Of a stretch of DNA of 33,279 nucleotides, positions 3,097 to 30,794 are shown piece after piece. Every line of letters starts with the position of its first letter. The stretch's first letter is position 1. The notes beneath the pieces were generated by a model. It was given only the letters and a program-made list of their open reading frames with translations. It did not search any database and was not told the DNA's origin. This stretch comes from a virus. Its lineage: Duplodnaviria; Heunggongvirae; Uroviricota; Caudoviricetes. Both the position numbers and the translations under genes were made by a program. The stretch lies in the IMG/VR virus record IMGVR_UViG_2718217785_000004; one strand, 5' to 3'.

Positions 3097-5544
3097 TTAA
3101 CCGTCATGCATCATGCTGGCACGGGCGCGCGCACGTTTATCCCGCTCGTATTTTTCGAGCGCATCCTGTAACTGGCGGTCGAGCTGAGTCCCCGGCGCAG
3201 TACCGCCCGTCAGACTGATGTGATATTCGTTTTTACTCTGGTCCACATAAGAGCGGCCAGCCGGTGCCGTGACCGGCTGATAAGCCTGATAGCCTGCATA
3301 AGAGCTGGTCGCCGGAATATAACCACCGGTGCCATACGTGGCGGCATGAGTCCTTGCTGCGGTCTGGTCAAGTGTGTCTGACTCTTTGTTGATAACACCG
3401 AGTTTTTCCAGTACCCAGTCAATACCGCTGCGCAGTTTGTTGAACGCATTAAGCGGCAGCATCAGCGCGTCAGCCAGTGCCTGCCCGAACATGACCCCCG
3501 TGTCACGGCAACGGTTTAGGGTGTCCTGGGTGGCTTTGACCGGGGCAATCAGGTTTTTAAACCACTGCCACGCGGCCTGTAACTTTTCGCCCAGCCAGTC
3601 AAACACCGGCTTAAGTGGCGTGAACAGTTCCCCCACCGGCGCAAATGCCGCTTTCAGCCCTTCCACCACACCGCCAAAGAATGCGCTGACAGGCTCCCAG
3701 TATTTACGGATAAGCAACGCCCCGGCGACAATGGCGGCCACCACAGCCACAACCGGCCAGCTAATTGCCCCGATGGCCGTCATAACAGCACTGCCTATCG
3801 TCGTGAAGATTGCCCCCATTGCGCCTGCTGCCGCGATAATGGCATTGATGCCGGTGATAACCGGCCAGGCTACGAGGCCAATGGCACCGATGATGCCAGT
3901 AAGCGCCAGCGCGCCACCGACAATGAGGCCGATGGTTGACGCCAGTGATTTGTTTTTCTGGATCCAGCCGTCGAGTTTTAACACATACTTTGTGGCCGTC
4001 TGAGTGAGCTTACGCAGTGCGCCTTCCTGCTGGTCAAACAGGTCTGTCCCCACCGCCTCATAAGCGGACTGAAACTCCTTAAAGTCACCGCCGAGGTTGT
4101 CCTGCATGATATTTACCAGCTCGGCAGTCTTCCCGTCTGAGGCTTTAAACGCAGCGGTCAGTTTGTCCAGCTTTCCGGTTGAGGCGGCAGTCATCAGCAC
4201 GGCGGCGGCTGAGCTGGCCTCCTCCCCGAAAATAGTTTTCATGTATTCAGCCTGCTGGGCAGTACCGAGCCGGTTTTTCTCAAAACTGGCCTGCATTTCT
4301 TTCAGAATGGTAAATATTGGCCGGGTGTTTCCCTTACTGTCTGAGGTTTTCACTCCAAGCTCTTTGAGTGCATCCCATGCTTTTCCCGTCGGTGCCTGCA
4401 GGCGGCTTAACACGGCACGGCTTCCCGTCCCCGCCATTGAGCCTGTGATTTTTGCATCATGCAGCGCCCCGACCATTGCGGCGGTTTCTTCAATGCTGAC
4501 ACCGGCATTTTTTGCCACAGGTGCGGCATAGGTCAGCGCATCGCTCATGCCGTCAAAATCGGCGGCGGTTTTGTTCATCGTCATGGAGAGAACATCCCCG
4601 ATATGAGCGACCTTATCGTTTGAAAGCTGAAAGGCGGATTTCATCCCCATCAGCAGGGCAGCGTTTTCTTCCATCGTGCGACGGTTCGCCAGCGCCATAT
4701 TCAGCGTGACCGGCGTTGCCGCCTGAATGGCATCAACATCCCCACCGGCTTTCGCAATAATAATCTGCGCACCGGCTGCATCATCTGCCGAGGCGGCGGT
4801 ATTGTCGCCGAGCTGGCGCGCCTGTTTGCGTAGTGCAGCCATTTCGGCGGAGTCTTTTGCCACTCCGAGCACGGCCTGCAATTCTGAGTTTTTCTGCGCA
4901 AACTCATAACCGGGCATCAGCAGCTTAACTCCGGCCATCGTTCCCGCCGCCGCAATCCCCACACCGGCAGCGCCCACCGAGGCCATATTTCCTGCCAGTT
5001 CCTTTCCGGCCTGATAACGCTGTTTTACTGCGTTAAGTTTTGCCTGTTGTGCACTGACACGCGCCAGTGCGTCGCGCTGACGGTTAAGCTGTGCGGTGGT
5101 TTCACTGATACGGTTTTTCAGCCCCTGCTCATCATGTGCAAGATTGCGGGTATTAATTCCCACAGCGGCCAGTTCCCGCTGCTGGCGCTTAACGGAATCC
5201 GTCAGGCGGTTATATTTCGCCTGTAAGTCCTCCGCCGCACGCTTTGCGGATTCCAGCACTTTCGCCTGAGCACGGGTCGGACGTTCAGTGTTTTTAAACT
5301 GTGTGGCAAGGGCTTCGGCCTCCTGCCGTGCCTTTTCAAGTGCATGACCAGTCACGGCGAGCTGTGCGCTGGTCTTGCGAAATCCCTCAATACGGGATGC
5401 CTGACCATTCAGCTCGCGCAGTGATTTTTGTGTTTCCCGGATATCCCCCGACAGCGACTTGCTCGCTGTGCGGATGGATTTAAACGGGCGGGATGCCTGG
5501 TCAACAGCCCTGAGCAATACCTGTAATTTTACATTGTTACTCAT
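3097..5544 (-). CDS. T: Tail tape-measure protein T
   Basis: 815-aa ORF with coiled-coil N-terminus, Gly/Ala-rich hydrophobic central stretch and C-terminal domain; position after E/E'. Confidence 0.85.
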   Translation of the reverse strand: MSNNVKLQVLLRAVDQASRPFKSIRTASKSLSGDIRETQKSLRELNGQASRIEGFRKTSAQLAVTGHALEKARQEAEALATQFKNTERPTRAQAKVLESAKRAAEDLQAKYNRLTDSVKRQQRELAAVGINTRNLAHDEQGLKNRISETTAQLNRQRDALARVSAQQAKLNAVKQRYQAGKELAGNMASVGAAGVGIAAAGTMAGVKLLMPGYEFAQKNSELQAVLGVAKDSAEMAALRKQARQLGDNTAASADDAAGAQIIIAKAGGDVDAIQAATPVTLNMALANRRTMEENAALLMGMKSAFQLSNDKVAHIGDVLSMTMNKTAADFDGMSDALTYAAPVAKNAGVSIEETAAMVGALHDAKITGSMAGTGSRAVLSRLQAPTGKAWDALKELGVKTSDSKGNTRPIFTILKEMQASFEKNRLGTAQQAEYMKTIFGEEASSAAAVLMTAASTGKLDKLTAAFKASDGKTAELVNIMQDNLGGDFKEFQSAYEAVGTDLFDQQEGALRKLTQTATKYVLKLDGWIQKNKSLASTIGLIVGGALALTGIIGAIGLVAWPVITGINAIIAAAGAMGAIFTTIGSAVMTAIGAISWPVVAVVAAIVAGALLIRKYWEPVSAFFGGVVEGLKAAFAPVGELFTPLKPVFDWLGEKLQAAWQWFKNLIAPVKATQDTLNRCRDTGVMFGQALADALMLPLNAFNKLRSGIDWVLEKLGVINKESDTLDQTAARTHAATYGTGGYIPATSSYAGYQAYQPVTAPAGRSYVDQSKNEYHISLTGGTAPGTQLDRQLQDALEKYERDKRARARASMMHDG

Positions 5545-7801: not shown

Positions 7802-8395
7802 CTATTTGTCCCGGTTGGCTAAGGGATGACACAATTTATTCTTTGTCGCTGATGAGGGGAATTTTTTATAGAGCGTGGACAGGCCAATATCAAAAATCAG
7901 CGCCACACGTTGACGAGATTCCCCCGCAGCCAGCAACCGTCCGACCTGCTCCCACTCACCCGCAGTGAGTTTCGGTCGTCTGCCACCAATACGACCTTTG
8001 GCTCTGGCCGCTTCCAGTCCGGCGCGTGTCCGCTCGACAATGAGTTCTCGCTCCATTTCAGCCAGGGCACCCATCACATGAAAGAAAAAACGCCCCATCG
8101 GCGTGCTGGTATCAATAGCATCCGTCAGGCTGCGAAAATTAACGCCGCGTTCGCGCAGTTCCTCAACCAGAATGACCAGATGCCGCATACTACGCCCCAG
8201 CCTGTCCAGCTTCCAGACCACCAGTGTATCCCCCTCAGATAATGTTCTGAGCAGTTTTTTCAGTCCCGGTCGGTCGGACTTTGTGCCGCTGATTTTATCC
8301 TCAAAAATCAGCTCACATCCTGCACACTCCAGCGCATTACGCTGCAATTCCGTATTCTGGTCATTTGTTGATACGCGGACATAGCCAATAAGCAT
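7802..8395 (-). CDS. Serine-recombinase DNA invertase (Hin/Gin/Pin/Cin family)
   Basis: Translation MLIGYVRVSTNDQNT...VVWKLDRLGRS...MGRFFFHVMGALAEMERELI is the canonical resolvase/invertase catalytic domain (Ser in VRVST) with a C-terminal HTH; sits beside an invertible tail-fibre segment. Confidence 0.9.
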   Translation of the reverse strand: MLIGYVRVSTNDQNTELQRNALECAGCELIFEDKISGTKSDRPGLKKLLRTLSEGDTLVVWKLDRLGRSMRHLVILVEELRERGVNFRSLTDAIDTSTPMGRFFFHVMGALAEMERELIVERTRAGLEAARAKGRIGGRRPKLTAGEWEQVGRLLAAGESRQRVALIFDIGLSTLYKKFPSSATKNKLCHPLANRDK

Positions 8396-8450
8396 GATGG
8401 ATCCCCTGAATAAAAACCAGAGATGATGCCACTTGCCCGTTATCTCTGCA

Positions 8451-8476
8451 TTTTCATAAACGTTGGTTTGGGAGAA
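8451..8476. repeat. hix/gix-like inversion crossover site 1 (TTTTCATAAACG TT GGTTTGGGAGAA)
   Basis: Seen in sequence: 26-bp site with imperfect dyad half-sites; its reverse complement shares TTCTCCCAAACCAA with site 2 at 10314..10339 in inverted orientation. Confidence 0.7.
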
Positions 8477-8944
8477 GGTTCGGCATTACCCGTTGGTGTG
8501 CCTGTTCCGTGGCCTTCCGCCACTCCGCCAACAGGCTGGCTGAAATGCAACGGTGCGGCATTTTCTGCTGAAGAATACCCGGAACTGGCAAAGGCTTACC
8601 CGACAAATAAATTGCCTGATTTACGCGGTGAGTTTATTCGTGGCTGGGATGACGGGAGAGGCATTGACCCCGGAAGGATTCTATTGGCTTCACAGGAGCA
8701 TGCAATGCAAAACGTCACTGGTTCAATAGGGAAAATTCAGCTTTTTAAAGATTTAGTTACCAGTGGTCCATTTCGTCATAACGGTAATAACTATCTGACT
8801 ACTGGATTAACAGCGGTTACAGGCGTAGGTAGTGGAGGGCATGGTGTCACAACATTTGATTTCGATATGTCAAGGGTGGCAAATACCGCCAATGAAACTC
8901 GCCCGGTGAACGTTGCATTTAACTACATTGTGAGGGCTGCATAA
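8477..8944 (+). CDS. Silent alternative tail-fibre C-terminal cassette, promoterless in this orientation
   Basis: ORF 8423..8944 reads through crossover site 1 encoding ...FINVGLGEG, matching the ...YLGLGE junction in H; it has no fibre N-terminus of its own. Confidence 0.65.
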   Translation, partial: GSALPVGVPVPWPSATPPTGWLKCNGAAFSAEEYPELAKAYPTNKLPDLRGEFIRGWDDGRGIDPGRILLASQEHAMQNVTGSIGKIQLFKDLVTSGPFRHNGNNYLTTGLTAVTGVGSGGHGVTTFDFDMSRVANTANETRPVNVAFNYIVRAA

Positions 8945-9546
8945 TGGATAACGCTGTATTAAATAGCGAGTTTATTGCTACGAAGGCAGGGGATATTACT
9001 GTTTATAACTATGATGGTGAAACTCGGGAATATATTTCCACTTCAAGTGAATATCTTGCCGTTGGTGTTGGTATCCCGGCATATTCCTGCCTGGATGCAC
9101 CTGGTATACATAGGGAGGGTTATGTTATCCGCCGTTCTGCAGATTTTAACTCATGGGAATATGTGCCAGACCATCGCGGTGAAATCGTCTATAGCACCGA
9201 AACAGGAGAATCAAAAGAAATCACATCTCCGGGTGATTACCCTGAAAATACAACCACTATCGCCCCTTTATCTCCATACGATAAATGGGATGGTGAGAAA
9301 TGGGTGACAGATACCGAGGCACAGCATAGCGCCGCAGTAGACGCGGCAGAAGCACAGCGTCAGTCACTGATTGATGCTGCAATGGTTTCCATTAGTCTGA
9401 TTCAGTTGAAATTGCAGGCCGGGCGGAAGCTGACGCAGGCAGAAACCACCCGGCTTAACGCTGCGCTGGATTATATTGACGCGTTGACGGCAACAGATAC
9501 CAGCACCGCGCCGGATGTCATCTGGCCTGAACTGCCGGAGGCGTAG
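8944..9546 (+). CDS. Tail-fibre assembly chaperone, alternative copy paired with the silent fibre cassette
   Basis: 200-aa ORF with conserved C-terminal ...LDYIDALTATDTSTAPDVIWPELPEA, similar to the C-terminus of the minus-strand chaperone (...LDYLDALELVDTSGAPDIEWPTPP). Confidence 0.7.
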   Translation: MDNAVLNSEFIATKAGDITVYNYDGETREYISTSSEYLAVGVGIPAYSCLDAPGIHREGYVIRRSADFNSWEYVPDHRGEIVYSTETGESKEITSPGDYPENTTTIAPLSPYDKWDGEKWVTDTEAQHSAAVDAAEAQRQSLIDAAMVSISLIQLKLQAGRKLTQAETTRLNAALDYIDALTATDTSTAPDVIWPELPEA

Positions 9547-23324: not shown

Positions 23325-25283
23325 ATGTCAGATTTCGAAATTAAAATTGATTTGAATGTGCTAAATCACCTAGGGATGAGTCTCTATTCCAATACTCCCG
23401 CGGTACTAACTGAGATTATATCAAATGCATGGGATGCAGATGCTCAAAATGTAGAAATTACACTTGATGTTGAGAAAGGAGAGGTCATCATTAAAGATGA
23501 TGGTCATGGCATGTCTAAAGATGACATTATTAATAAGTTCCTAAAAGTCGGTTATGCTCGCAGGGAACATGGAAGAGCCAAAAGCGATCATCTAAAACGT
23601 CAAGTTATGGGCAGAAAAGGTATTGGTAAGCTTGCCATGTTTTCACTTGCCAATAAAATCCAAGTTTATTCGTACAAAAAGGGGGAACAGCCTCAGGCCT
23701 TTGAGGTAGATGTCAAAGATTTACAGCAAAGTATCAAAGAATCAAAAAACTATATTGCTGACTCCCTTGAAATACCCGAAAATCTTGCTTACGGCACTAC
23801 AATTAAATTATTTGAACTAAAAAAAGCCATTGATAGGACTCAAACTTACCTCAGAAAGCGAATAGCTCGTCGATTTAGCATTATTGGCCCCAACCATAAC
23901 TTTACAGTTAAAATTAATGGGACCGATATTACACCGGCAGATAGAGATTTCCTTTCAGATCTCGAGTTCATTTGGGAATTTGGCGAATCCGACCCTGAAA
24001 GGATAAAATCCTGCACAAACATCACACAAAAAAACATATTACCAAATACTATTACCTTTGAAGGAAAAGATGTAAAAGTTAGTGGGTACATTGGCAGTGT
24101 AGTTAAGCCATCACAGTTAAAGAAAGACCCTGAAATATCTAACAACAGCATTACTGTAATCTCTCACGGACGTGTTTTTGAGGAGGACATATTATTAGAA
24201 TTTGGAAGTGCTAAAGTATTCACCAATTATCTGGTCGGTGAAATAGTCGCCGATTTTCTAGATGATAACGAAAAGCCTGATATGGCAACATCTTCTCGTC
24301 AAAAACTACAACAGAATGATCCAAGATACCCTGTACTTAAAGGTTTTCTGGAAAGAACGCTACAACTAATCGATAAAGATTGGGATAAATGGAGACGCGA
24401 AAAAGGAGTAAATGAAGTTAAAAGTAATACTCCAATAGTAAGTGAATGGCTGAATTCTCTCAAAAAACATGAGAGAGAAAGTGCCGAAAAGTTAATTGGA
24501 CGAGTAAACACATTCCGTTTTTCTGGTAATGAGGAAGAACAAAAAGCAGCAAGAAAAACCGTATTAAAAAATACGGTATTAGCCTTTGAAAGACTTAGAA
24601 TTCAAGACAACCTTGATGCATTAGATAAAATAAGCAACCTTCAATCAGAAAATTTTAAAGATGTATTTGCATCTGTCAATGACATTGAAGCAAGCATGTT
24701 TTATGAAATTACTTCGCAACGCCTTAAAGTAATTGAAAAATTCCAAAAAATAACTGATGAAAATCAGCTTGAAAGAGCTGTACAAATGTATTTATATGAT
24801 CATTTATGGTTATTGGATCCTTCATGGGAAAGAGTCACAGGCACATCTGTTATGGAGCAAACATTGACCAAGGAACTAAAACAGATAAACCCTGATGCTG
24901 CTAGCGGTGCTCGTATTGATATCGCTTTCAAAACCGTTTCTGGCAAGCATGTAATTATTGAGATGAAACGACCTAAAGTGCACCCAGATATAATGAACCT
25001 AGTCGCACAAGGTAATAAATATGTACAGGCAACGACACAATGGTTCTCCAATAACCCTAAAAATTGCCCAGGTGGAAATATACCGCATATAGAAGTAATA
25101 TTCCTGGTTGGCTCTGGATATTTACAAGAGAACCAACACTTTATAAATATGCAATTACTTTCTATCAATGGAAAAATATTGACATATAATGACCTAATCG
25201 TGCAATCAAAACAAGCCTATGCTGAATATCAAGACAAAAAGAATGATGCAGCTAGAATTATGAAAATAGTTGAGGGAATCTAA
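23325..25283 (+). CDS. GHKL-type (Hsp90/MORC-like) ATPase fused to a C-terminal PD-(D/E)xK-like putative nuclease; candidate defence/restriction effector
   Basis: N-box EIISNAWDADAQ (res ~31-41), G1 box DDGHGMS (58-64), G2 box GRKGIGKLAMFS (96-107); C-terminus has D...E-x-K pattern (RIDIAF ... VIIEMKRP; D532, E546, K548). AAGGAA Shine-Dalgarno 8 nt upstream of ATG; low GC relative to phage backbone. Confidence 0.65.
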   Translation: MSDFEIKIDLNVLNHLGMSLYSNTPAVLTEIISNAWDADAQNVEITLDVEKGEVIIKDDGHGMSKDDIINKFLKVGYARREHGRAKSDHLKRQVMGRKGIGKLAMFSLANKIQVYSYKKGEQPQAFEVDVKDLQQSIKESKNYIADSLEIPENLAYGTTIKLFELKKAIDRTQTYLRKRIARRFSIIGPNHNFTVKINGTDITPADRDFLSDLEFIWEFGESDPERIKSCTNITQKNILPNTITFEGKDVKVSGYIGSVVKPSQLKKDPEISNNSITVISHGRVFEEDILLEFGSAKVFTNYLVGEIVADFLDDNEKPDMATSSRQKLQQNDPRYPVLKGFLERTLQLIDKDWDKWRREKGVNEVKSNTPIVSEWLNSLKKHERESAEKLIGRVNTFRFSGNEEEQKAARKTVLKNTVLAFERLRIQDNLDALDKISNLQSENFKDVFASVNDIEASMFYEITSQRLKVIEKFQKITDENQLERAVQMYLYDHLWLLDPSWERVTGTSVMEQTLTKELKQINPDAASGARIDIAFKTVSGKHVIIEMKRPKVHPDIMNLVAQGNKYVQATTQWFSNNPKNCPGGNIPHIEVIFLVGSGYLQENQHFINMQLLSINGKILTYNDLIVQSKQAYAEYQDKKNDAARIMKIVEGI

Positions 25284-25324: not shown

Positions 25325-26374
25325 TTAAATATTCATTTCTGACAAATGTTTTAAAATAGTTTCACCTACGACCTCACCAAGCCTAACAGGAACAGCATTA
25401 CCTATTAAACGCGCAACTGTTCTCATTTCAATTTTTACATCATCAGGCCAAAACTCATACTTTTCTGGGAATGACTGTAATAGCGCAGCCTCTCTTAAAC
25501 TTAATGCTCTATTTTGGACAGGGTGCCCAAAGCGTCCATTCCCATATCCAATACATTGAGTTGTAATTGTCGGTCCAAGTTTATCCCAACACATTCTCCC
25601 ATATACAGCAGTATATGTAGAACCACTTTCTTTTGTATGACATTTTGCTCTTAGCTCTTCTGGCCAATCACGCCATGTTCCACCAGGTTTTGATGCCATT
25701 ATTCTTTTTATATTAATATCAGATAATGATGCAGAGCGATGTAGTTTATCTCCAGCGTGAACAGCACCGGCACTAATTTCAGGAAGATTACCGATTATAT
25801 CTCGCACCGTTTTATAATCATTCTTCTCATGAGTTGGTGGAATTATTTCTATTTCTCCATATTTTGATGCCAATAACACTAATCTTGAACGACTTTGTGC
25901 CATTCCATAGTCTGGACAAAACACCACCCCATACCAAACAAAATAGCCATCATTTTTAAGAGACTTAATGAAGTCCTTAAAAACCTTATGATTCACCACT
26001 CGGGGAACGTTTTCCATTGTAATAATATCTGGCTTTGCAAATTTAATTTGCTTAGCAAAGCTATAAAGCAAAGACCATCTTTTATCTTTTGAACGTACTA
26101 CCCCTAATTTAGCACTATTGGTATAGCTTGAAAAAGGTTGGCATGGGGCACAACCAGCCAAAACTCGAACCTTCGCTCCTTCGAAATATTTAACTAATTC
26201 GCCGTCCTCAATGTCTGTAACACTTTTCTGGACAAAGAGTGATTTATTATTTGTCTCATAGGCAAATCGACAGGCTGCATCTATATCATAACCTGCAACT
26301 ACATTAAGCCCCGACTTCTGAAGACCGTGAGTCAAGCCACCCGCGCCACAGAATAAATCAACAACCTTAATCAA
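25325..26374 (-). CDS. DNA (cytosine-5)-methyltransferase
   Basis: Motif I DLFCGAGG, motif IV PCQPFS (catalytic Cys), ENV, QSRSR, GNAV motifs; ORF track starts at a TTG at 26476, but AGAAGGAGG Shine-Dalgarno 6 nt before a TTG at 26372..26374 (MIKVVDLFCGAGG) suggests the shorter start. Confidence 0.85.
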   Translation of the reverse strand: MIKVVDLFCGAGGLTHGLQKSGLNVVAGYDIDAACRFAYETNNKSLFVQKSVTDIEDGELVKYFEGAKVRVLAGCAPCQPFSSYTNSAKLGVVRSKDKRWSLLYSFAKQIKFAKPDIITMENVPRVVNHKVFKDFIKSLKNDGYFVWYGVVFCPDYGMAQSRSRLVLLASKYGEIEIIPPTHEKNDYKTVRDIIGNLPEISAGAVHAGDKLHRSASLSDINIKRIMASKPGGTWRDWPEELRAKCHTKESGSTYTAVYGRMCWDKLGPTITTQCIGYGNGRFGHPVQNRALSLREAALLQSFPEKYEFWPDDVKIEMRTVARLIGNAVPVRLGEVVGETILKHLSEMNI

Positions 26375-26437
26375 GATAAACCTCCTTCTAATGCTGTGGG
26401 GATTGTAGCATTGTTCTTTCTCATCATCGATGTTTAC

Positions 26438-26476
26438 TTGATGCTTGATTTGTGAATACAAAATCAAGCATGTCAA
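26438..26476 (-). promoter_or_regulatory. Palindrome GCTTGATTT-N9-AAATCAAGC overlapping a TTGACA -35-like hexamer upstream of the methyltransferase; candidate promoter/operator
   Basis: Seen in sequence in the AT-rich 110-bp gap between A stop and the MTase start; -10 element is weak (ACAAAT). Confidence 0.3.
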
Positions 26477-26485
26477 TCATTATTG

Positions 26486-28765
26486 TTAGTTTGTTTCAAA
26501 TCCCGCCCAACCATCAGAAATCGGATATGAAAACGTTTTCCCATCATAATTTACGGTCGCGCCACGCGCCAGCGCCTCAAGCTCCCATCGCTGCGGCCTG
26601 ATACCGTTCTGAGCAAGGTCAACGCGGATACGGGTAATTTGCATTCGTTCCGACCGGGCCAGTCTGGCCGATGGTGCAATTTCATGTGGTTTTAACGAGC
26701 TTCCGTTTCTTTGCTGACGATTTGGCGTTCTCCGACCGTGTTTTAATGCACCTCTGAGCGCCCTCACGACCTCCGGGTCACTCCATTCGATAACACTGTC
26801 ATCAACCAGATTAAGCACTGCTGCGGCGTGCTCAGAAGGTGTGGGAGCCGGTAACGAAGTATCACCACCGGTGAGTTTTCCACAGTTATTGACAGGACTC
26901 CGAGGCGCGGCGATGCCGCTTTTTAAAGTCAAAGGCTCAACGACCGGCACTTTCGGCACAATGCGCCAGTCCGTCGTTCTGGTGATATGAATATGACGCG
27001 CGCCGAGATGCGGCGCGTAAATGCCGACCACTCTCTCGACTTCTTCCTCGTACTCGTTAACGTCATCCGACGGGCTACGGGCAACCCTGACAGTCTGACA
27101 ATCGCGCGGAACATTTGCCCCACCCTGCGCGCTGATATACAACGCAAAATCACCACTGTCTGCGGCAGCGCGTGCAGCCTCGACGCGTTCGTCAAACTCA
27201 TCAGCAATGCTGACGCCGCGAGGCAATTTGCGTAGTTCACGGTAAGCCCCCATTGTCGGCAGGCCAACCGTTTTAAATTGCGGAATGCGCCACGTTGACG
27301 CCCATGCGGTAACAGCCGCGGCAGTGTCTTTCAGCGGCCTGCCGGTATCGTTATCGAGCTGACCATCCAGTGCATAGCCATCGATGTTTTTTGAAATGTA
27401 TTTCGCGATATACCCCGCAGCACCGCCCCGGTTAAGGTGTTTTGCCTGAAAACGGTTTCGCGCAGCTCCTCTTTCGTCGCCATCCTCTTTGAGCGCGTAG
27501 CGACGCATGATTTCAATAATCTGGTTACGCTGGCGTGGATTACAAAAAAGCATCATATGCCAGTGCGGCGTTCCGTCGTGGTGTGGCTCGACGACTCGCA
27601 AACCGTAGACCTGTAAATCATTATCCTTGAATGCCGTGCGCATCAGGCTCCAGATACGGCAGAGATAACGCTGCGCATCCTTTGGATTAAATGCCTCATC
27701 GTTCCAGCCGTGATTTAGCTGGACGGTTTTACTTTCTCCTTTTCCGACCTGACGTGTCGGGTGATACTTTGACGGCGCGGTCAGCGTGATAAACATCCCC
27801 ACATCACCCTCTGCTGCGGCGTAACGCTCAATACCGGCGATGGTGTTCATCAGCTCCATCCGGCGAATTTCTGGATTAGAAATACTGCCCATCACCTTAC
27901 TGATAAGGTCGATGCGCTCGCCGGTTTCCTTGTTTTCAAGGTCACACGATTTAAGAAACTCCAGATTTGCCTGGCGGCGCGCACGCACATCACGAATGGC
28001 ATGTTTACTGGCATAAGGAGAACGGTCTTTATTGACCTCCCCGACAGCAATCAGTAACGCCTCATGCCAGCGCATACGCTGGCCTTTAAGCTGATGAGTC
28101 CACCACTCATCGTTAAACAGACGGGCAATGGCAGAATATGCCTGCCTCGTGGTTATCTGTCCTTTACGGTATTTTTTCCAGTAGAGCGGGGAAATATTGA
28201 AAGCACGTGCAGCGCCAGCAACATGACCATACAGGTGAGTCTGCGCCTCATCCGTAAACAGCGATTCTTTTTCGCCATGTGCATCAACCCATGCATCGCA
28301 GAGTTCCTCATACATCATGAAAAGCTGCGATGAGATACGGGCGGCAAACTTTTTCAGCTCCTTGTCATTCATTCCAGGCAGGCGCGCATAGTGGTCACGC
28401 TCTGCCAGAAACAGCAACGACGCGTCGGTGTTCATTTCATGGCGCTGATTCACGCGCTCAATGCGCGGCCATAAACGACGCTGAAAAGTAGATGTGAGGA
28501 AATAAAACCCGTGCACCGGGCTTTTATTGCGCCGGATGTAGTCATAGCGTGAAGTAAACAGCGAGCGCAAAAAGTAAGGCAGGCGGTTAATCGTGGATAA
28601 AACACCTTGCACCTGACGCATCTCGTCACGTGTAAGGGGTCTTTCGCGCCCGACGGCCTCGCGTGGCGCGTTCCATGCATAAGCACCGGTAAACGCCTTA
28701 CCGGTGCCTGCAGCAAATGCTGACGGAGGTACGCAGGTGTATTGCTCCTGGAAAGAATGACTCAT
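26486..28765 (-). CDS. A: Replication initiation protein A (rolling-circle nickase)
   Basis: 759-aa ORF, size/position of P2 gpA at the end of the early operon. Confidence 0.85.
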   Translation of the reverse strand: MSHSFQEQYTCVPPSAFAAGTGKAFTGAYAWNAPREAVGRERPLTRDEMRQVQGVLSTINRLPYFLRSLFTSRYDYIRRNKSPVHGFYFLTSTFQRRLWPRIERVNQRHEMNTDASLLFLAERDHYARLPGMNDKELKKFAARISSQLFMMYEELCDAWVDAHGEKESLFTDEAQTHLYGHVAGAARAFNISPLYWKKYRKGQITTRQAYSAIARLFNDEWWTHQLKGQRMRWHEALLIAVGEVNKDRSPYASKHAIRDVRARRQANLEFLKSCDLENKETGERIDLISKVMGSISNPEIRRMELMNTIAGIERYAAAEGDVGMFITLTAPSKYHPTRQVGKGESKTVQLNHGWNDEAFNPKDAQRYLCRIWSLMRTAFKDNDLQVYGLRVVEPHHDGTPHWHMMLFCNPRQRNQIIEIMRRYALKEDGDERGAARNRFQAKHLNRGGAAGYIAKYISKNIDGYALDGQLDNDTGRPLKDTAAAVTAWASTWRIPQFKTVGLPTMGAYRELRKLPRGVSIADEFDERVEAARAAADSGDFALYISAQGGANVPRDCQTVRVARSPSDDVNEYEEEVERVVGIYAPHLGARHIHITRTTDWRIVPKVPVVEPLTLKSGIAAPRSPVNNCGKLTGGDTSLPAPTPSEHAAAVLNLVDDSVIEWSDPEVVRALRGALKHGRRTPNRQQRNGSSLKPHEIAPSARLARSERMQITRIRVDLAQNGIRPQRWELEALARGATVNYDGKTFSYPISDGWAGFETN

Positions 28766-29769
28766 TCACATACACCGGCATAGACACTACTGCAAACTGA
28801 CTTATCATTCACCGAAGCCAGCAAATCAAACTGTGCCCCGCCACGCGTGGTCATCGCCCAGTCACGATAAGACTCAATTCCGTAAGCATCGACAGTAATA
28901 ATATCAATGCGGCGTTCCGCACGACGCGGGTCATGAGTTGACGGGAAGAAAGTAGAATTTCCGCGTCTGGAGCATGCGGCGACAAGTCGCTCCCATTCCG
29001 CAACACGCTTAACCTCTTCCGGCCAGCGACTAAAAATTTCAGCTAATTCAGACTTTCTGGCGTGGATGCAGGGCATACAACCGACACGACTGCATCCCTG
29101 CTGGTATAACGGATTAGGTTTAATTCCATGACGTCTTGCAAATGCAAATACCTCCTCATGCGTCCAGTTCAGAATAGGACGGTATACATGGAGCCCGGGC
29201 GTATTGTCCGCATCCTCTTCCCAGGCAGGCAGACCCGCGCGCGCAGGAGACTCCTGAGCGCGAACCCCCTGCCAGCTAATTACCTCATCAAACTCATTAA
29301 GCGCAGGTAACACGACCTGAGTACGTACTGGCTCATGTTTAAGGTCAAAAGTGCAAAATCTGGCTTTAGTGGAAGGAAATCGCCCTTTCCACATGCACAA
29401 ATCAAGAAATGGGATACCAGTAGGCTTGAGAATTTCCAGCGCACAATTGATGCGCTCTGCCGCTTCCCCCGGAGACATTCCGCACTCTTCAACCAGAGAA
29501 ACAGGCCATTTCTCAGCAATAAACTTGCGCTTACCTTCAATCTGTCGGGAGAAGTCAGCTTTAACCCGTTTAACCGGCCCGAGTCGGTTCTCCAGATAAT
29601 CGAGATACTCCATTGTCTGCGGATGCTCATGCCCGGTGTCTGCAAAAACCGGCAAAAAATGCACACCGCTTTCAATACCAACAAGCCATTGAGCAAGGCT
29701 ATCCTTTCCGCCAGAAACAGAAATAATATTGATAGAGCTTTCAGCTCGGCAGCGGGTATCAACTATCAT
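28762..29769 (-). CDS. PAPS-reductase-family PP-loop protein (phosphoadenosine-phosphosulfate reductase/DndC-like fold)
   Basis: PP-loop motif SVSGGKDS near N-terminus and C-terminal Cys cluster CSRVGCMPC; stop overlaps the A start by 4 bp. Confidence 0.7.
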   Translation of the reverse strand: MIVDTRCRAESSINIISVSGGKDSLAQWLVGIESGVHFLPVFADTGHEHPQTMEYLDYLENRLGPVKRVKADFSRQIEGKRKFIAEKWPVSLVEECGMSPGEAAERINCALEILKPTGIPFLDLCMWKGRFPSTKARFCTFDLKHEPVRTQVVLPALNEFDEVISWQGVRAQESPARAGLPAWEEDADNTPGLHVYRPILNWTHEEVFAFARRHGIKPNPLYQQGCSRVGCMPCIHARKSELAEIFSRWPEEVKRVAEWERLVAACSRRGNSTFFPSTHDPRRAERRIDIITVDAYGIESYRDWAMTTRGGAQFDLLASVNDKSVCSSVYAGVCE

Positions 29770-30047
29770 TTAGATTTCCCCGCACAGAGAAACGCAGTCA
29801 GACACTGCTGACCGAGCTGCTCAACCTGAGAGCTCAGCGCCTCAAAAGAGACAGCGTTACCGCTCAAAATATCGTGATGGATCAGACCGGAAACGAGCTG
29901 GTTTAATTTGGGGTAATAGCCGACAACATCCAGCCACTCTTTACCGGCATTCTTCCCGGTTTCAGCGGTCTTTCTCTCCTGCAAAATGAACTGAAAACGG
30001 TCATTTGTGACGACATAACGCTCGCCAATCTCAATACGAATGCTCAT
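29766..30047 (-). CDS. Hypothetical early-operon protein
   Basis: 93-aa ORF, 4-bp overlap with downstream gene; no recognisable motif. Confidence 0.5.
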   Translation of the reverse strand: MSIRIEIGERYVVTNDRFQFILQERKTAETGKNAGKEWLDVVGYYPKLNQLVSGLIHHDILSGNAVSFEALSSQVEQLGQQCLTAFLCAGKSK

Positions 30048-30268
30048 GCCATTCTCCGGTAATGCTTGTTTTTTGCTTCAAAGACTGACTGGCAGGAAAC
30101 ACAACGCGTGGCTGACGGATAAGCCGCACGACGGGCAGCAGGTATTGGCGCGTCACACTCTTCGCAAACCAGCGCAGAAACACCGCAATGTTTTACCCTT
30201 GCCGCGTTAATCTGGCGCTCCAGTAATTCAGCCTGTTGTTCCTGAATAAAATCCTCGTTGTCCGGCAT
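30044..30268 (-). CDS. TraR/DksA-family C4 zinc-finger protein
   Basis: CEECDAPIP...CVSCQ four-Cys motif in a 74-aa protein. Confidence 0.7.
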   Translation of the reverse strand: MPDNEDFIQEQQAELLERQINAARVKHCGVSALVCEECDAPIPAARRAAYPSATRCVSCQSVFEAKNKHYRRMA

Positions 30269-30573
30269 TACCAGCTCCTTTTGTCGTTCAGTTTCTTAAA
30301 TTCATCAGCGCAATAGCTGGCGATTTCTGTCGTTAATTTTGTCAGTTCATCCACGGAGGAAATTTGCTTGTGAAATACAGCGCGTTTAACAAGTAAATTG
30401 ACCACATCAGACAGGAGATTTAATTCGTTCTGATAAATCGCGATAACAGATTCAGTTATGTCGCGTTTTTCTTTATCAAGACAAAGTTGAATAAGAGACA
30501 AATCGCCATTTTTCATAACGGCGATTTTTAAGGCGTTATTCAGTAACACAACTGAATGAGAACAGGACATCAA
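30268..30573 (-). CDS. Hypothetical early-operon protein
   Basis: 101-aa ORF in tightly packed operon. Confidence 0.45.
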
Positions 30574-30794
30574 AGCACCTCCCCGCGAGACAATCCGATA
30601 TTGTGAAATTTTTCCGACTCCTGACTAAGCAGCTCGACTATCTCCACGCGGGATAACTCCGCCTTTGTGATATGGCGAATCATGGCGTCAAGATGAGAAG
30701 AAAAGCGCGTCGCAGCGTCGGCCTGTGCTTCGGTTCTGGCCTGTTGCAGCAGTAATGCGTATTTACCGCACTGATTTTCAGAAACTGTATGCAT
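30570..30794 (-). CDS. Hypothetical early-operon protein
   Basis: 74-aa ORF in tightly packed operon. Confidence 0.45.

Follow-up and report, generated by a model that had tools for sequence, protein, structure and literature searches.

What does a phosphoadenosine phosphosulfate (PAPS) reductase-like enzyme do in the early lytic operon of a P2-like phage, directly upstream of the gene encoding the replication initiator? This question is raised by IMG/VR record IMGVR_UViG_2718217785_000004, a stretch of 33,279 nt analyzed on one strand and referred to below, at its full length, as the window. It represents a P2-like (Peduovirus) prophage in the integrated state, since it carries a host cation-efflux (CDF) gene at its left end (1-921) and a phage integrase (32269-33279) that runs off its right end, with one junction lying inside. 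An earlier sequence-only reading of this DNA had proposed that the enzyme participates in DNA modification or in evasion of host defenses. We found that the gene, hereafter the PAPS-like gene, is the P2-type copy (ortholog) of the long-known orf84 of coliphage 186 and not a new gene. We see an even chance that its product is a dispensable DNA-modification or anti-defense enzyme of lytic growth, namely, a PP-loop ATP pyrophosphatase with a probable iron-sulfur (Fe-S) site that does not serve sulfate assimilation. The gene, its two junctions, and its neighbors in the early operon, including small open reading frames (ORFs) known from P2, are as follows.

28762-29769, minus strand: PAPS-like gene, encoding a PP-loop protein of the PAPS-reductase superfamily (ATG start, 335 residues), ortholog of coliphage 186 Orf84
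29766-29769, minus strand: ATGA overlap between the stop of the orf83-like ORF and the start of the PAPS-like gene (the plus strand reads tcat)
28762-28765, minus strand: ATGA overlap between the stop of the PAPS-like gene and the start of gene A (the plus strand reads tcat)
26486-28765, minus strand: replication gene A, encoding the rolling-circle nickase (Pfam Phage_GPA, 4e-124)
29766-30047, minus strand: orf83-like DUF5405 ORF (Pfam DUF5405, phrog_154), kept upstream of the insertion
30044-30268, minus strand: orf82-like TraR/DksA zinc finger, a small early ORF, retained
30268-30573, minus strand: orf81-like DUF5405 ORF, a small early ORF, retained
30570-30794, minus strand: orf80-like DUF2732 ORF, a small early ORF, retained

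The extent of the ORF agreed with the sequence-only reading, and the 4-bp overlap with A that had been noted downstream is accompanied by a second 4-nt overlap with the orf83-like ORF upstream. The ORF is a real gene, far beyond chance. Its DNA is 99.9% identical to that of Yersinia phage P37, and prophage copies that are 100% identical at the DNA level are present in several E. coli genomes, where they are already annotated as "phosphoadenosine phosphosulfate reductase family protein." More than 5,000 homologues of the protein were found, with 351 clusters (50% identity) at E<1e-30. The ratio of nonsynonymous to synonymous substitution rates (dN/dS), calculated against two diverged copies, was 0.04 for 186 orf84 and 0.08 for another E. 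coli copy, indicating that the ORF is under strong protein-level constraint.

The early operon has the order cox, small ORF, B-like ORF, orf80 (DUF2732), orf81 (DUF5405), orf82 (TraR/DksA), orf83 (DUF5405), PAPS-like gene, and A; the segment from the orf80-like to the orf82-like ORF is identical in order in P37 and in E. coli 65COLEC. Since the orf81-like and orf83-like ORFs both belong to DUF5405, they are paralogues within one operon. No sigma-70-like site was detected upstream of the PAPS-like gene on the coding strand, indicating that the gene is read from the early promoter. A terminator-like hairpin (29795-29814, minus strand), consisting of a 7-bp stem and a T-rich tail, is located within the 3'-terminal part of the orf83-like ORF, a short distance before the PAPS-like gene begins. 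Several anti-terminated terminators are known in the same operon of phage 186.

The orthology was established by a protein-level search of phage genomes, in which 186 Orf84 (AAC34185.1; U32222.1 25743-26747) was 82.3% identical to the window protein over residues 2-335. As in the window, orf84 of 186 occupies the slot between orf83 and A, shares 4-nt overlaps with both, and encodes a protein ending in VCSSVYAGVCE; in the coordinates of locus L084, Orf83 and Orf84 of 186 are at 3729-4004 and 4001-5005, respectively. The backbones of the two phages differ, that of the window being of the P2 type (Cox, C repressor, and B), whereas that of 186 is of the 186 type (Apl, CI, and CII).

The GenBank record of 186 describes orf84 as of [quoted passage not shown] and annotates a terminator, tM1, just inside A, which is active when A is untranslated. 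The PAPS-like enzyme is not needed for replication, and the translational coupling to A that had been proposed for the window is documented in this record for the ortholog. P2 itself has an 11-nt overlap between orf83 and A. Thus, A is coupled to whichever ORF precedes it, and the insertion of the PAPS-like gene recreates the same junction. Coupling is a property of A expression and offers no clue to the function of the enzyme. The sequence-only reading had taken coupling to the initiator as a sign of a DNA-modification or anti-defense role. That role is still the best available reading, based on the enrichment of DNA methyltransferase genes and on the vibriophage precedent described below, but coupling does not count as evidence for it, since A overlaps orf83 in P2.

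Where gpA follows the PAPS-like gene, an ATG or GTG that overlaps the TGA stop and is in frame with gpA was found in 37 of 45 related loci. In these 37 loci, the terminal Glu codon (GAA or GAG) and the TGA stop (28762-28770 in the window) together create the ATGA or GTGA that starts gpA. The Cys-Glu ending of the family members is also kept where gpA does not follow. The preserved RTGA junctions and the 186 record, which ties translation of A to the reading of orf84 to its end and places tM1 just inside A, could be explained if the gene were a translational leader that delivers ribosomes to A and prevents premature termination, its enzyme activity being vestigial. However, the far shorter orf83 does the same job in P2, so that 1 kb of coding sequence is unneeded for it, and neither the dN/dS of 0.04-0.08 nor the invariance of the catalytic residues at 40% identity, even in loci without gpA downstream, fits a vestigial enzyme. 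We therefore regard the leader explanation as extremely unlikely.

The sequence-only reading had the gene standing in place of small ORFs. This was wrong, since all small P2 ORFs are retained, the homologues of P2 orf80, orf81, orf82, and orf83 being present upstream; the PAPS-like gene is an additional insertion of ~1 kb at the orf83/A junction. Comparison of a 2.5-kb query extending from orf82 to A with phage records returned ~90 matched records. In almost every one (P2, Wphi, L-413C, fiAA91-ss, and others), the flanks were ~94% identical and contiguous, covering 1,480 bp versus 2,503 bp in the query; the middle part was present only in P37 and in one "Peduovirus P2" genome, each represented by a GenBank and a RefSeq record. 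In P2, Wphi, and L-413C, orf83 is joined straight to A without the cassette. Alignment to P2 set the limits of the cassette at the diverged 3' end of orf83 (~29770-29855) on one side and at position ~28731 on the other, and the divergence of the orf83-like ORF from P2 orf83 is confined to that 3' end. Since P2 homology resumes 35 nt inside A, the cassette also contributes the first dozen codons of A. A foreign composition of the cassette was considered and rejected, its guanine-plus-cytosine (GC) content of 0.47-0.53 being that of its neighbors, compared with 0.34-0.43 for the hotspot cargo located downstream of A. Among 5,426 complete E. coli genomes, 67 carried the PAPS-like gene (14 near-identical copies and 53 at ~79% DNA identity) versus 1,724 for the P2-type A gene. 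The PAPS-like gene is a minority accessory gene among P2-like prophages.

The sole domain found by Pfam in the protein was PAPS_reduct (PF01507; 1.4e-35, 123.3 bits versus a cut-off of 22.5, residues 15-236), and the matches to phage protein families were phrog_424 and phrog_15238. The fold comparison matched a Rossmann-like alpha/beta fold resembling CysH, CysD, and FAD synthase. Both analyses agree with the PAPS-reductase fold and PP-loop recognized by the sequence-only reading. The model obtained with AlphaFold2 has an adenine-nucleotide alpha-hydrolase fold with a helical insert (residues 74-128) and a C-terminal extension; the mean predicted local distance difference test score was 75, with most of the core (residues 1-270) at 85-95 and the last 66 residues below 50. 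The motifs on which our functional proposal draws are the following.

29698-29715, minus strand: PP-loop SGGKDS (residues 19-24), the signature of ATP alpha-beta pyrophosphatases
29353-29355, minus strand: Cys139 in RFCTFDLKHEP, a candidate Fe-S ligand present in 100% of 121 representatives
29068-29097, minus strand: GCSRVGCMPC (residues 225-234), holding the CxxC pair C231/C234
28765-28794, minus strand: C-terminal tail CSSVYAGVCE (residues 326-335), with C334-E335 as the protein end

Cysteine conservation was counted over 121 representatives at 40-57% identity and amounted to 100% for C139 and C231, 98% for C234 and C334, 81% for C326, 79% for C125, and 7% for C226. In alignment A4, which comprises 40 diverse family members, G21, D23, and S24 of the PP-loop were invariant, as were C334 and E335, the family always ending in Cys-Glu. 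The cluster CSRVGCMPC that the sequence-only reading had located at the C terminus was recovered (residues 226-234), although it lies in the C-terminal third and not at the C terminus; its first cysteine, C226, is conserved in only 7% of the representatives and thus is not a family feature. A better-conserved C-terminal pair, C326/C334, had been overlooked.

The profile of the 40 diverse members was aligned with sequences of the Protein Data Bank (PDB). The family motif SGGkDS aligned to SSSFGIQ of CysH (6vpu and 1sur) and to SFSGAED of the adenosine phosphosulfate (APS) reductase 2goy, and the family thus keeps a canonical ATP alpha-beta-cleaving PP-loop lost in sulfonucleotide reductases. 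The family motif RVGCmPC aligned to SIGCEPC of the Pseudomonas aeruginosa APS reductase (chain 2goy), the CxxC of which ligates the [4Fe-4S] cluster of that enzyme. Upstream of the CxxC, the family has the single conserved C139, versus a CC pair in the CC...CxxC ligand set of APS reductases. We hold the motifs of a functional ATP pyrophosphatase with a cysteine site with high confidence, and this site would accommodate a putative Fe-S cluster. The same profile weakly matched PDB chain 21fy_C, "PptA" (a solved chain of 270 residues, E of 1e-3), the nature of which could not be established. Domain fusions were also considered as a functional clue and rejected, since all of the 10 longer relatives except P0256 were insert variants. 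P0256, a distant member of 560 residues, displays a weak N-terminal match to an S-adenosylmethionine methyltransferase domain (Methyltransf_23; 2.7e-4, missing the Pfam cut-off), the region concerned being fused to the PAPS domain.

Is the protein nonetheless a genuine APS or PAPS reductase, encoded by an auxiliary metabolic gene that raises the supply of sulfite and cysteine during infection, as many phage papers assume? This name is used by PHROG, by GenBank annotations, and by several papers; structural comparison ranked APS and PAPS reductases first; the CxxC pair can be aligned with the Fe-S motif of APS reductase; and the conserved cysteine of the C-terminal tail recalls the catalytic cysteine of the ECGLH motif. 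However, all curated NCBIfam models were missed by far (PRK02090, 66.8 bits versus a cut-off of 154; APS_reductase, 55.2 versus 235.3; cysH, 45.6 versus 165.1; PAPS_reductase, 41.7 versus 254.2), and only the C-terminal half of the protein aligns to CysH by sequence. There is no C-terminal ECGLH catalytic motif in the protein, the sequence of which ends ...KSVCSSVYAGVCE; ECG occurs once, at residues 95-97 within the helical insert, and just 1% of the relatives share C96. Orthology to CysH was rejected on the curated cut-offs, the alignment of the P-loop, and the absence of the ECGLH motif. The neighboring genes are moreover involved in DNA replication and methylation, not in sulfur metabolism. 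True sulfonucleotide reduction is accordingly very unlikely in our view, and we hold with high confidence that the protein is not a CysH-type metabolic enzyme. The sequence-only reading had been prepared to give way to a clear orthology to a characterized metabolic enzyme; with the CysH and APS-reductase models far below their cut-offs, no such orthology emerged.

Defense-related members of the superfamily gave partial matches. The DndC model TIGR03183 scored 22.6 bits versus a cut-off of 290.4 and covered residues 132-212 only. The PADLOC models yielded at best 8.6e-22 for SspD, 1.1e-15 for BrxP, and 6.5e-7 for DndC; the SspD match covered only residues 126-263 (model positions 72-202 of 277), and the BrxP match covered only residues 132-257 in a model of 779 positions. 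No DUF4007 fusion was present in the protein, in which Pfam found PAPS_reduct alone, and no BrxC/Z/L partners were found, the neighbors of the window gene being orf83 and gene A. Together, the profile and structure comparisons that had been called for with CysH, DndC, and phage families place the protein in the same superfamily but not among CysH, APS reductase, DndC, SspD, or BrxP, every curated cut-off being missed and partner genes being absent; the orthology to 186 Orf84 came from the protein-level search. Enzymes of the IbrA/YbdN type are defined by a DUF3440 C-terminal domain and an adjacent ParB-like partner (IbrB/YbdM). Membership in this family was rejected, since Pfam reports PF01507 only and a ParB helix-turn-helix domain was found in 2 of 129 neighbors of the relatives.

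The genomic surroundings of the family provide the second line of evidence. Prophages with a family member are present in Proteobacteria (the gamma, beta, and alpha classes) and in Firmicutes, Paenibacillus and Lysinibacillus among them. In 80 loci from viral contigs, gpA was found within three genes downstream in 29, mostly as the next gene, and a Dam methyltransferase of the D12 class (Pfam 1e-55) was immediately upstream in 16 and within four genes in 23. In the 51 viral loci without gpA, DNA methyltransferases were the commonest Pfam class among 129 flanking proteins (6 C5, 3 N6/N4, 2 D12, and 1 MT-A70). DNA methyltransferases were again the commonest class in species-representative genomes, which are less redundant, the 128 flanking proteins including 10 C5, 2 N6/N4, and 1 Dam enzyme, and same-strand C5 methyltransferase genes directly adjoin PAPS-like genes both in Pseudomonas and in Paenibacillus. 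The other neighbors were ordinary lambdoid replication and nin-region genes (P, SSB, RusA, YopX, dUTPase, and Q). As a control, the adjacent position was compared with positions two to four genes away, counting only BLAST-labeled methyltransferase clusters. Across these phylogenetically related loci, three of the four sets showed methyltransferases enriched next door, the odds ratios being 9-12 (p values of 1.5e-6, 6e-6, and 1e-4); the fourth set gave an odds ratio of 3.7 (p of 0.09). In several Pseudomonas loci (L119, L127, L138, L143, and L165), the C5 methyltransferase-like ORFs adjoining the PAPS-like gene are unusually long (580-760 residues), which suggests extra fused domains.

These neighbors bear on whether the substrate could be something other than DNA. 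The protein could be a tRNA or rRNA thiolase similar to TtuA, TtcA, and NcsA, tuning translation or evading anticodon nucleases, or it could adenylate a small molecule or a carboxylate of a protein, as does the QueC-like Cap9. DNA methyltransferases are nonetheless the sole recurrent class of neighbors, no RNA-binding domain (THUMP, PUA, or zinc fingers) was found by Pfam, and the protein is nearer by sequence to the PAPS-reductase, SspD, and BrxP families than to ATP_bind_3 or TtcA. A substrate other than DNA appears unlikely on these grounds.

Our preferred reading, a DNA-modification or anti-defense enzyme, can be stated as a sequence of steps. The ~1-kb accessory cassette belongs to the early lytic operon, and its translation is chained to that of orf83 and A. 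A [4Fe-4S] cluster would probably be held on C139, C231, and C234, and C334, followed by the terminal Glu, may act as a fourth ligand or as a sulfur relay. The protein joins a working PP-loop with three cysteines in the core and one in the tail, as described for DndC and tRNA thiolases, a pattern that points to adenylation followed by sulfur substitution. In the most likely chemistry, which is that of DndC, SspD, and TtuA, ATP would adenylate an oxygen of the nucleic-acid substrate, and sulfur from the cluster or from the cysteines would then displace AMP. The enzyme might act alone, with a DNA methyltransferase, or with host Dnd or Ssp components. Our analysis established the identity of the gene, the fold, the conservation of the motifs, the architecture of the insertion, the orthology to 186 orf84, the overlapping junctions, and the methyltransferase neighborhood, whereas we infer the Fe-S cluster, the sulfur chemistry, DNA as the substrate, and the anti-defense role. 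A more specific version, in which this partnerless enzyme puts a sulfur mark (a backbone phosphorothioate [PT] or a thio-base) on phage DNA shortly before, and stoichiometrically in step with, the A nickase that starts rolling-circle replication, is in our judgment quite unlikely; if true, it would provide a minimal one-gene system of DNA thiolation for counter-defense.

An experimental precedent for an anti-defense role comes from a vibriophage. Piel et al. described p0018, in which a PAPS domain (residues 4-175) is fused to Dam (residues 299-470), and reported that p0018 and the neighboring p0019, transferred together, permitted infection of a Dnd-carrying host (bioRxiv 10.1101/2021.05.05.442762; published in 2022 in Nature Microbiology). 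Like the family, p0018 is a phage-encoded PAPS-domain protein linked to Dam, and many relatives of the window gene have a Dam gene as their direct upstream neighbor. PAPS reductases have also been located in Aca-regulated putative anti-defense operons and in variable regions of phage genomes (2026 Nucleic Acids Research paper, PMC13551039).

Several observations weigh against the proposed DNA-modification or anti-defense role. To our knowledge, phage 186, although well studied, is not reported to carry any unusual modification. The last 66 residues, which include the tail cysteines, are poorly modeled, so that the geometry of the cluster is unsupported. Methyltransferase adjacency may reflect a mere shared cargo slot in phage genomes, the loci not being phylogenetically independent, and the window itself has no directly adjacent methyltransferase gene, the nearest being located beyond A and paired with a restriction-enzyme-like gene. 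No DndD, SspC, or BrxC ATPase, DndE, SspB, or cysteine desulfurase was found in the window or in 160 related loci, in a check that combined Pfam searches of 257 neighbors in 102 loci without gpA with BLAST labeling of the loci containing gpA. All four PT systems pair the PAPS-domain protein with a P-loop NTPase, and a Bacteroides strain that has a PAPS-reductase gene beside an ATPase but no adjacent dndD contained no PT dinucleotides detectable by liquid chromatography-mass spectrometry (PMC12914056). The PAPS domain of p0018 is short and fused to Dam, whereas the window protein consists of 335 residues, is unfused, and has a Cys-rich C-terminal half; the two were likened by description only. 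The anti-Dnd phenotype, finally, came from two genes transferred together, p0018 and p0019.

Some of the same observations are compatible with a role in which the protein does not modify DNA itself and interferes with the PT machinery of the host. A mimic of DndC or SspD could titrate or hijack the IscS persulfide or the DndD-DndE or SspBC components, thereby redirecting host PT modification onto phage DNA or disabling PT-dependent restriction. The gene is solo, lacking an ATPase or DNA-recognition partner of its own of the kind required by known PT synthesis; the best defense-model matches are SspD, BrxP, and DndC; the vibriophage precedent is specific to host Dnd; and the distribution of the gene over P2-like prophages is sparse and uneven, which would be expected of a host-specific counter-defense. 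Strict conservation of the PP-loop and of four cysteines argues, however, for a working enzyme rather than a decoy, and the family is spread over Proteobacteria and Firmicutes. The very weak DndC score (22.6 bits versus a cut-off of 290) makes specific docking to DndDE doubtful. Interference is an unlikely explanation, although it ranks first among the rivals, followed by an RNA or other substrate and then by true sulfonucleotide reduction.

Two further segments of the window were noted.

25325-26476, minus strand: C5 DNA methyltransferase (Pfam 1e-55), immediately downstream of gene A
23325-25283, plus strand: GHKL-ATPase protein of 652 residues (PADLOC type II restriction-enzyme model, 2e-91), convergent with the C5 methyltransferase gene
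7802-8395, minus strand: serine invertase (Resolvase and HTH_7)
8423-8944: tail-fiber Collar-domain ORF, beside the serine invertase gene
8944-9546: tail-fiber assembly gene

The segment 23325-26476, which has a GC content of 0.34-0.43 versus ~0.52 in A, looks like restriction-modification-like cargo in the A/Q (tin/old) defense hotspot of P2. The organization of 7802-9546 suggests a Gin/Cin-like invertible segment determining host range.

Solo PAPS-reductase-like genes are among the commoner "auxiliary" phage annotations and are routinely called sulfur-metabolism genes, older phage papers treating them as sulfur-assimilation morons (PMC2920897 and PMC9144972). Our analysis argues instead for a widespread subfamily of putative ATP-cleaving, cysteine-rich enzymes of the DndC/SspD/TtuA type that is accompanied by DNA methyltransferases. 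The label "cysH" given to such phage genes, as in record OU784746, is not justified. Since orthologs are present in coliphage 186 and in E. coli P2-like prophages, which are genetically tractable, the function of phage PAPS reductases is directly testable.

The protein was also compared with known systems. Assimilatory APS and PAPS reductases (CysH; 2goy, 1sur, and 6vpu) have a degenerate P-loop, whereas that of the window protein is canonical; they lack its helical insert of 55 residues and its C-terminal extension of 100 residues, and it lacks their ECGLH tail. The [4Fe-4S] tRNA thiolases (TtuA, NcsA, and TtcA) belong to a different sequence family (ATP_bind_3), and, unlike them, the window protein lacks both zinc fingers and RNA-binding modules and is encoded in a context of DNA replication and methylation. 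DndC, SspD, and BrxP (the last from BREX type 4), which are PAPS-domain sulfurtransferases of DNA phosphorothioation systems, belong to the same superfamily as the window protein and have a canonical PP-loop. DndC combines a 3-Cys [4Fe-4S] cluster with a sulfur-accepting Cys dyad (PMC10853773), a scheme with which the pattern C139/C231/C234, C326/C334, and SGGKDS appears compatible, the cysteines of the window protein being potentially able to provide a 3-Cys [4Fe-4S] cluster and a relay cysteine. The window gene differs from those encoding DndC, SspD, and BrxP in being phage borne and solo, and its product aligns with them only in part and carries signature motifs of its own, PTGxPFLDLC and the terminal CE.

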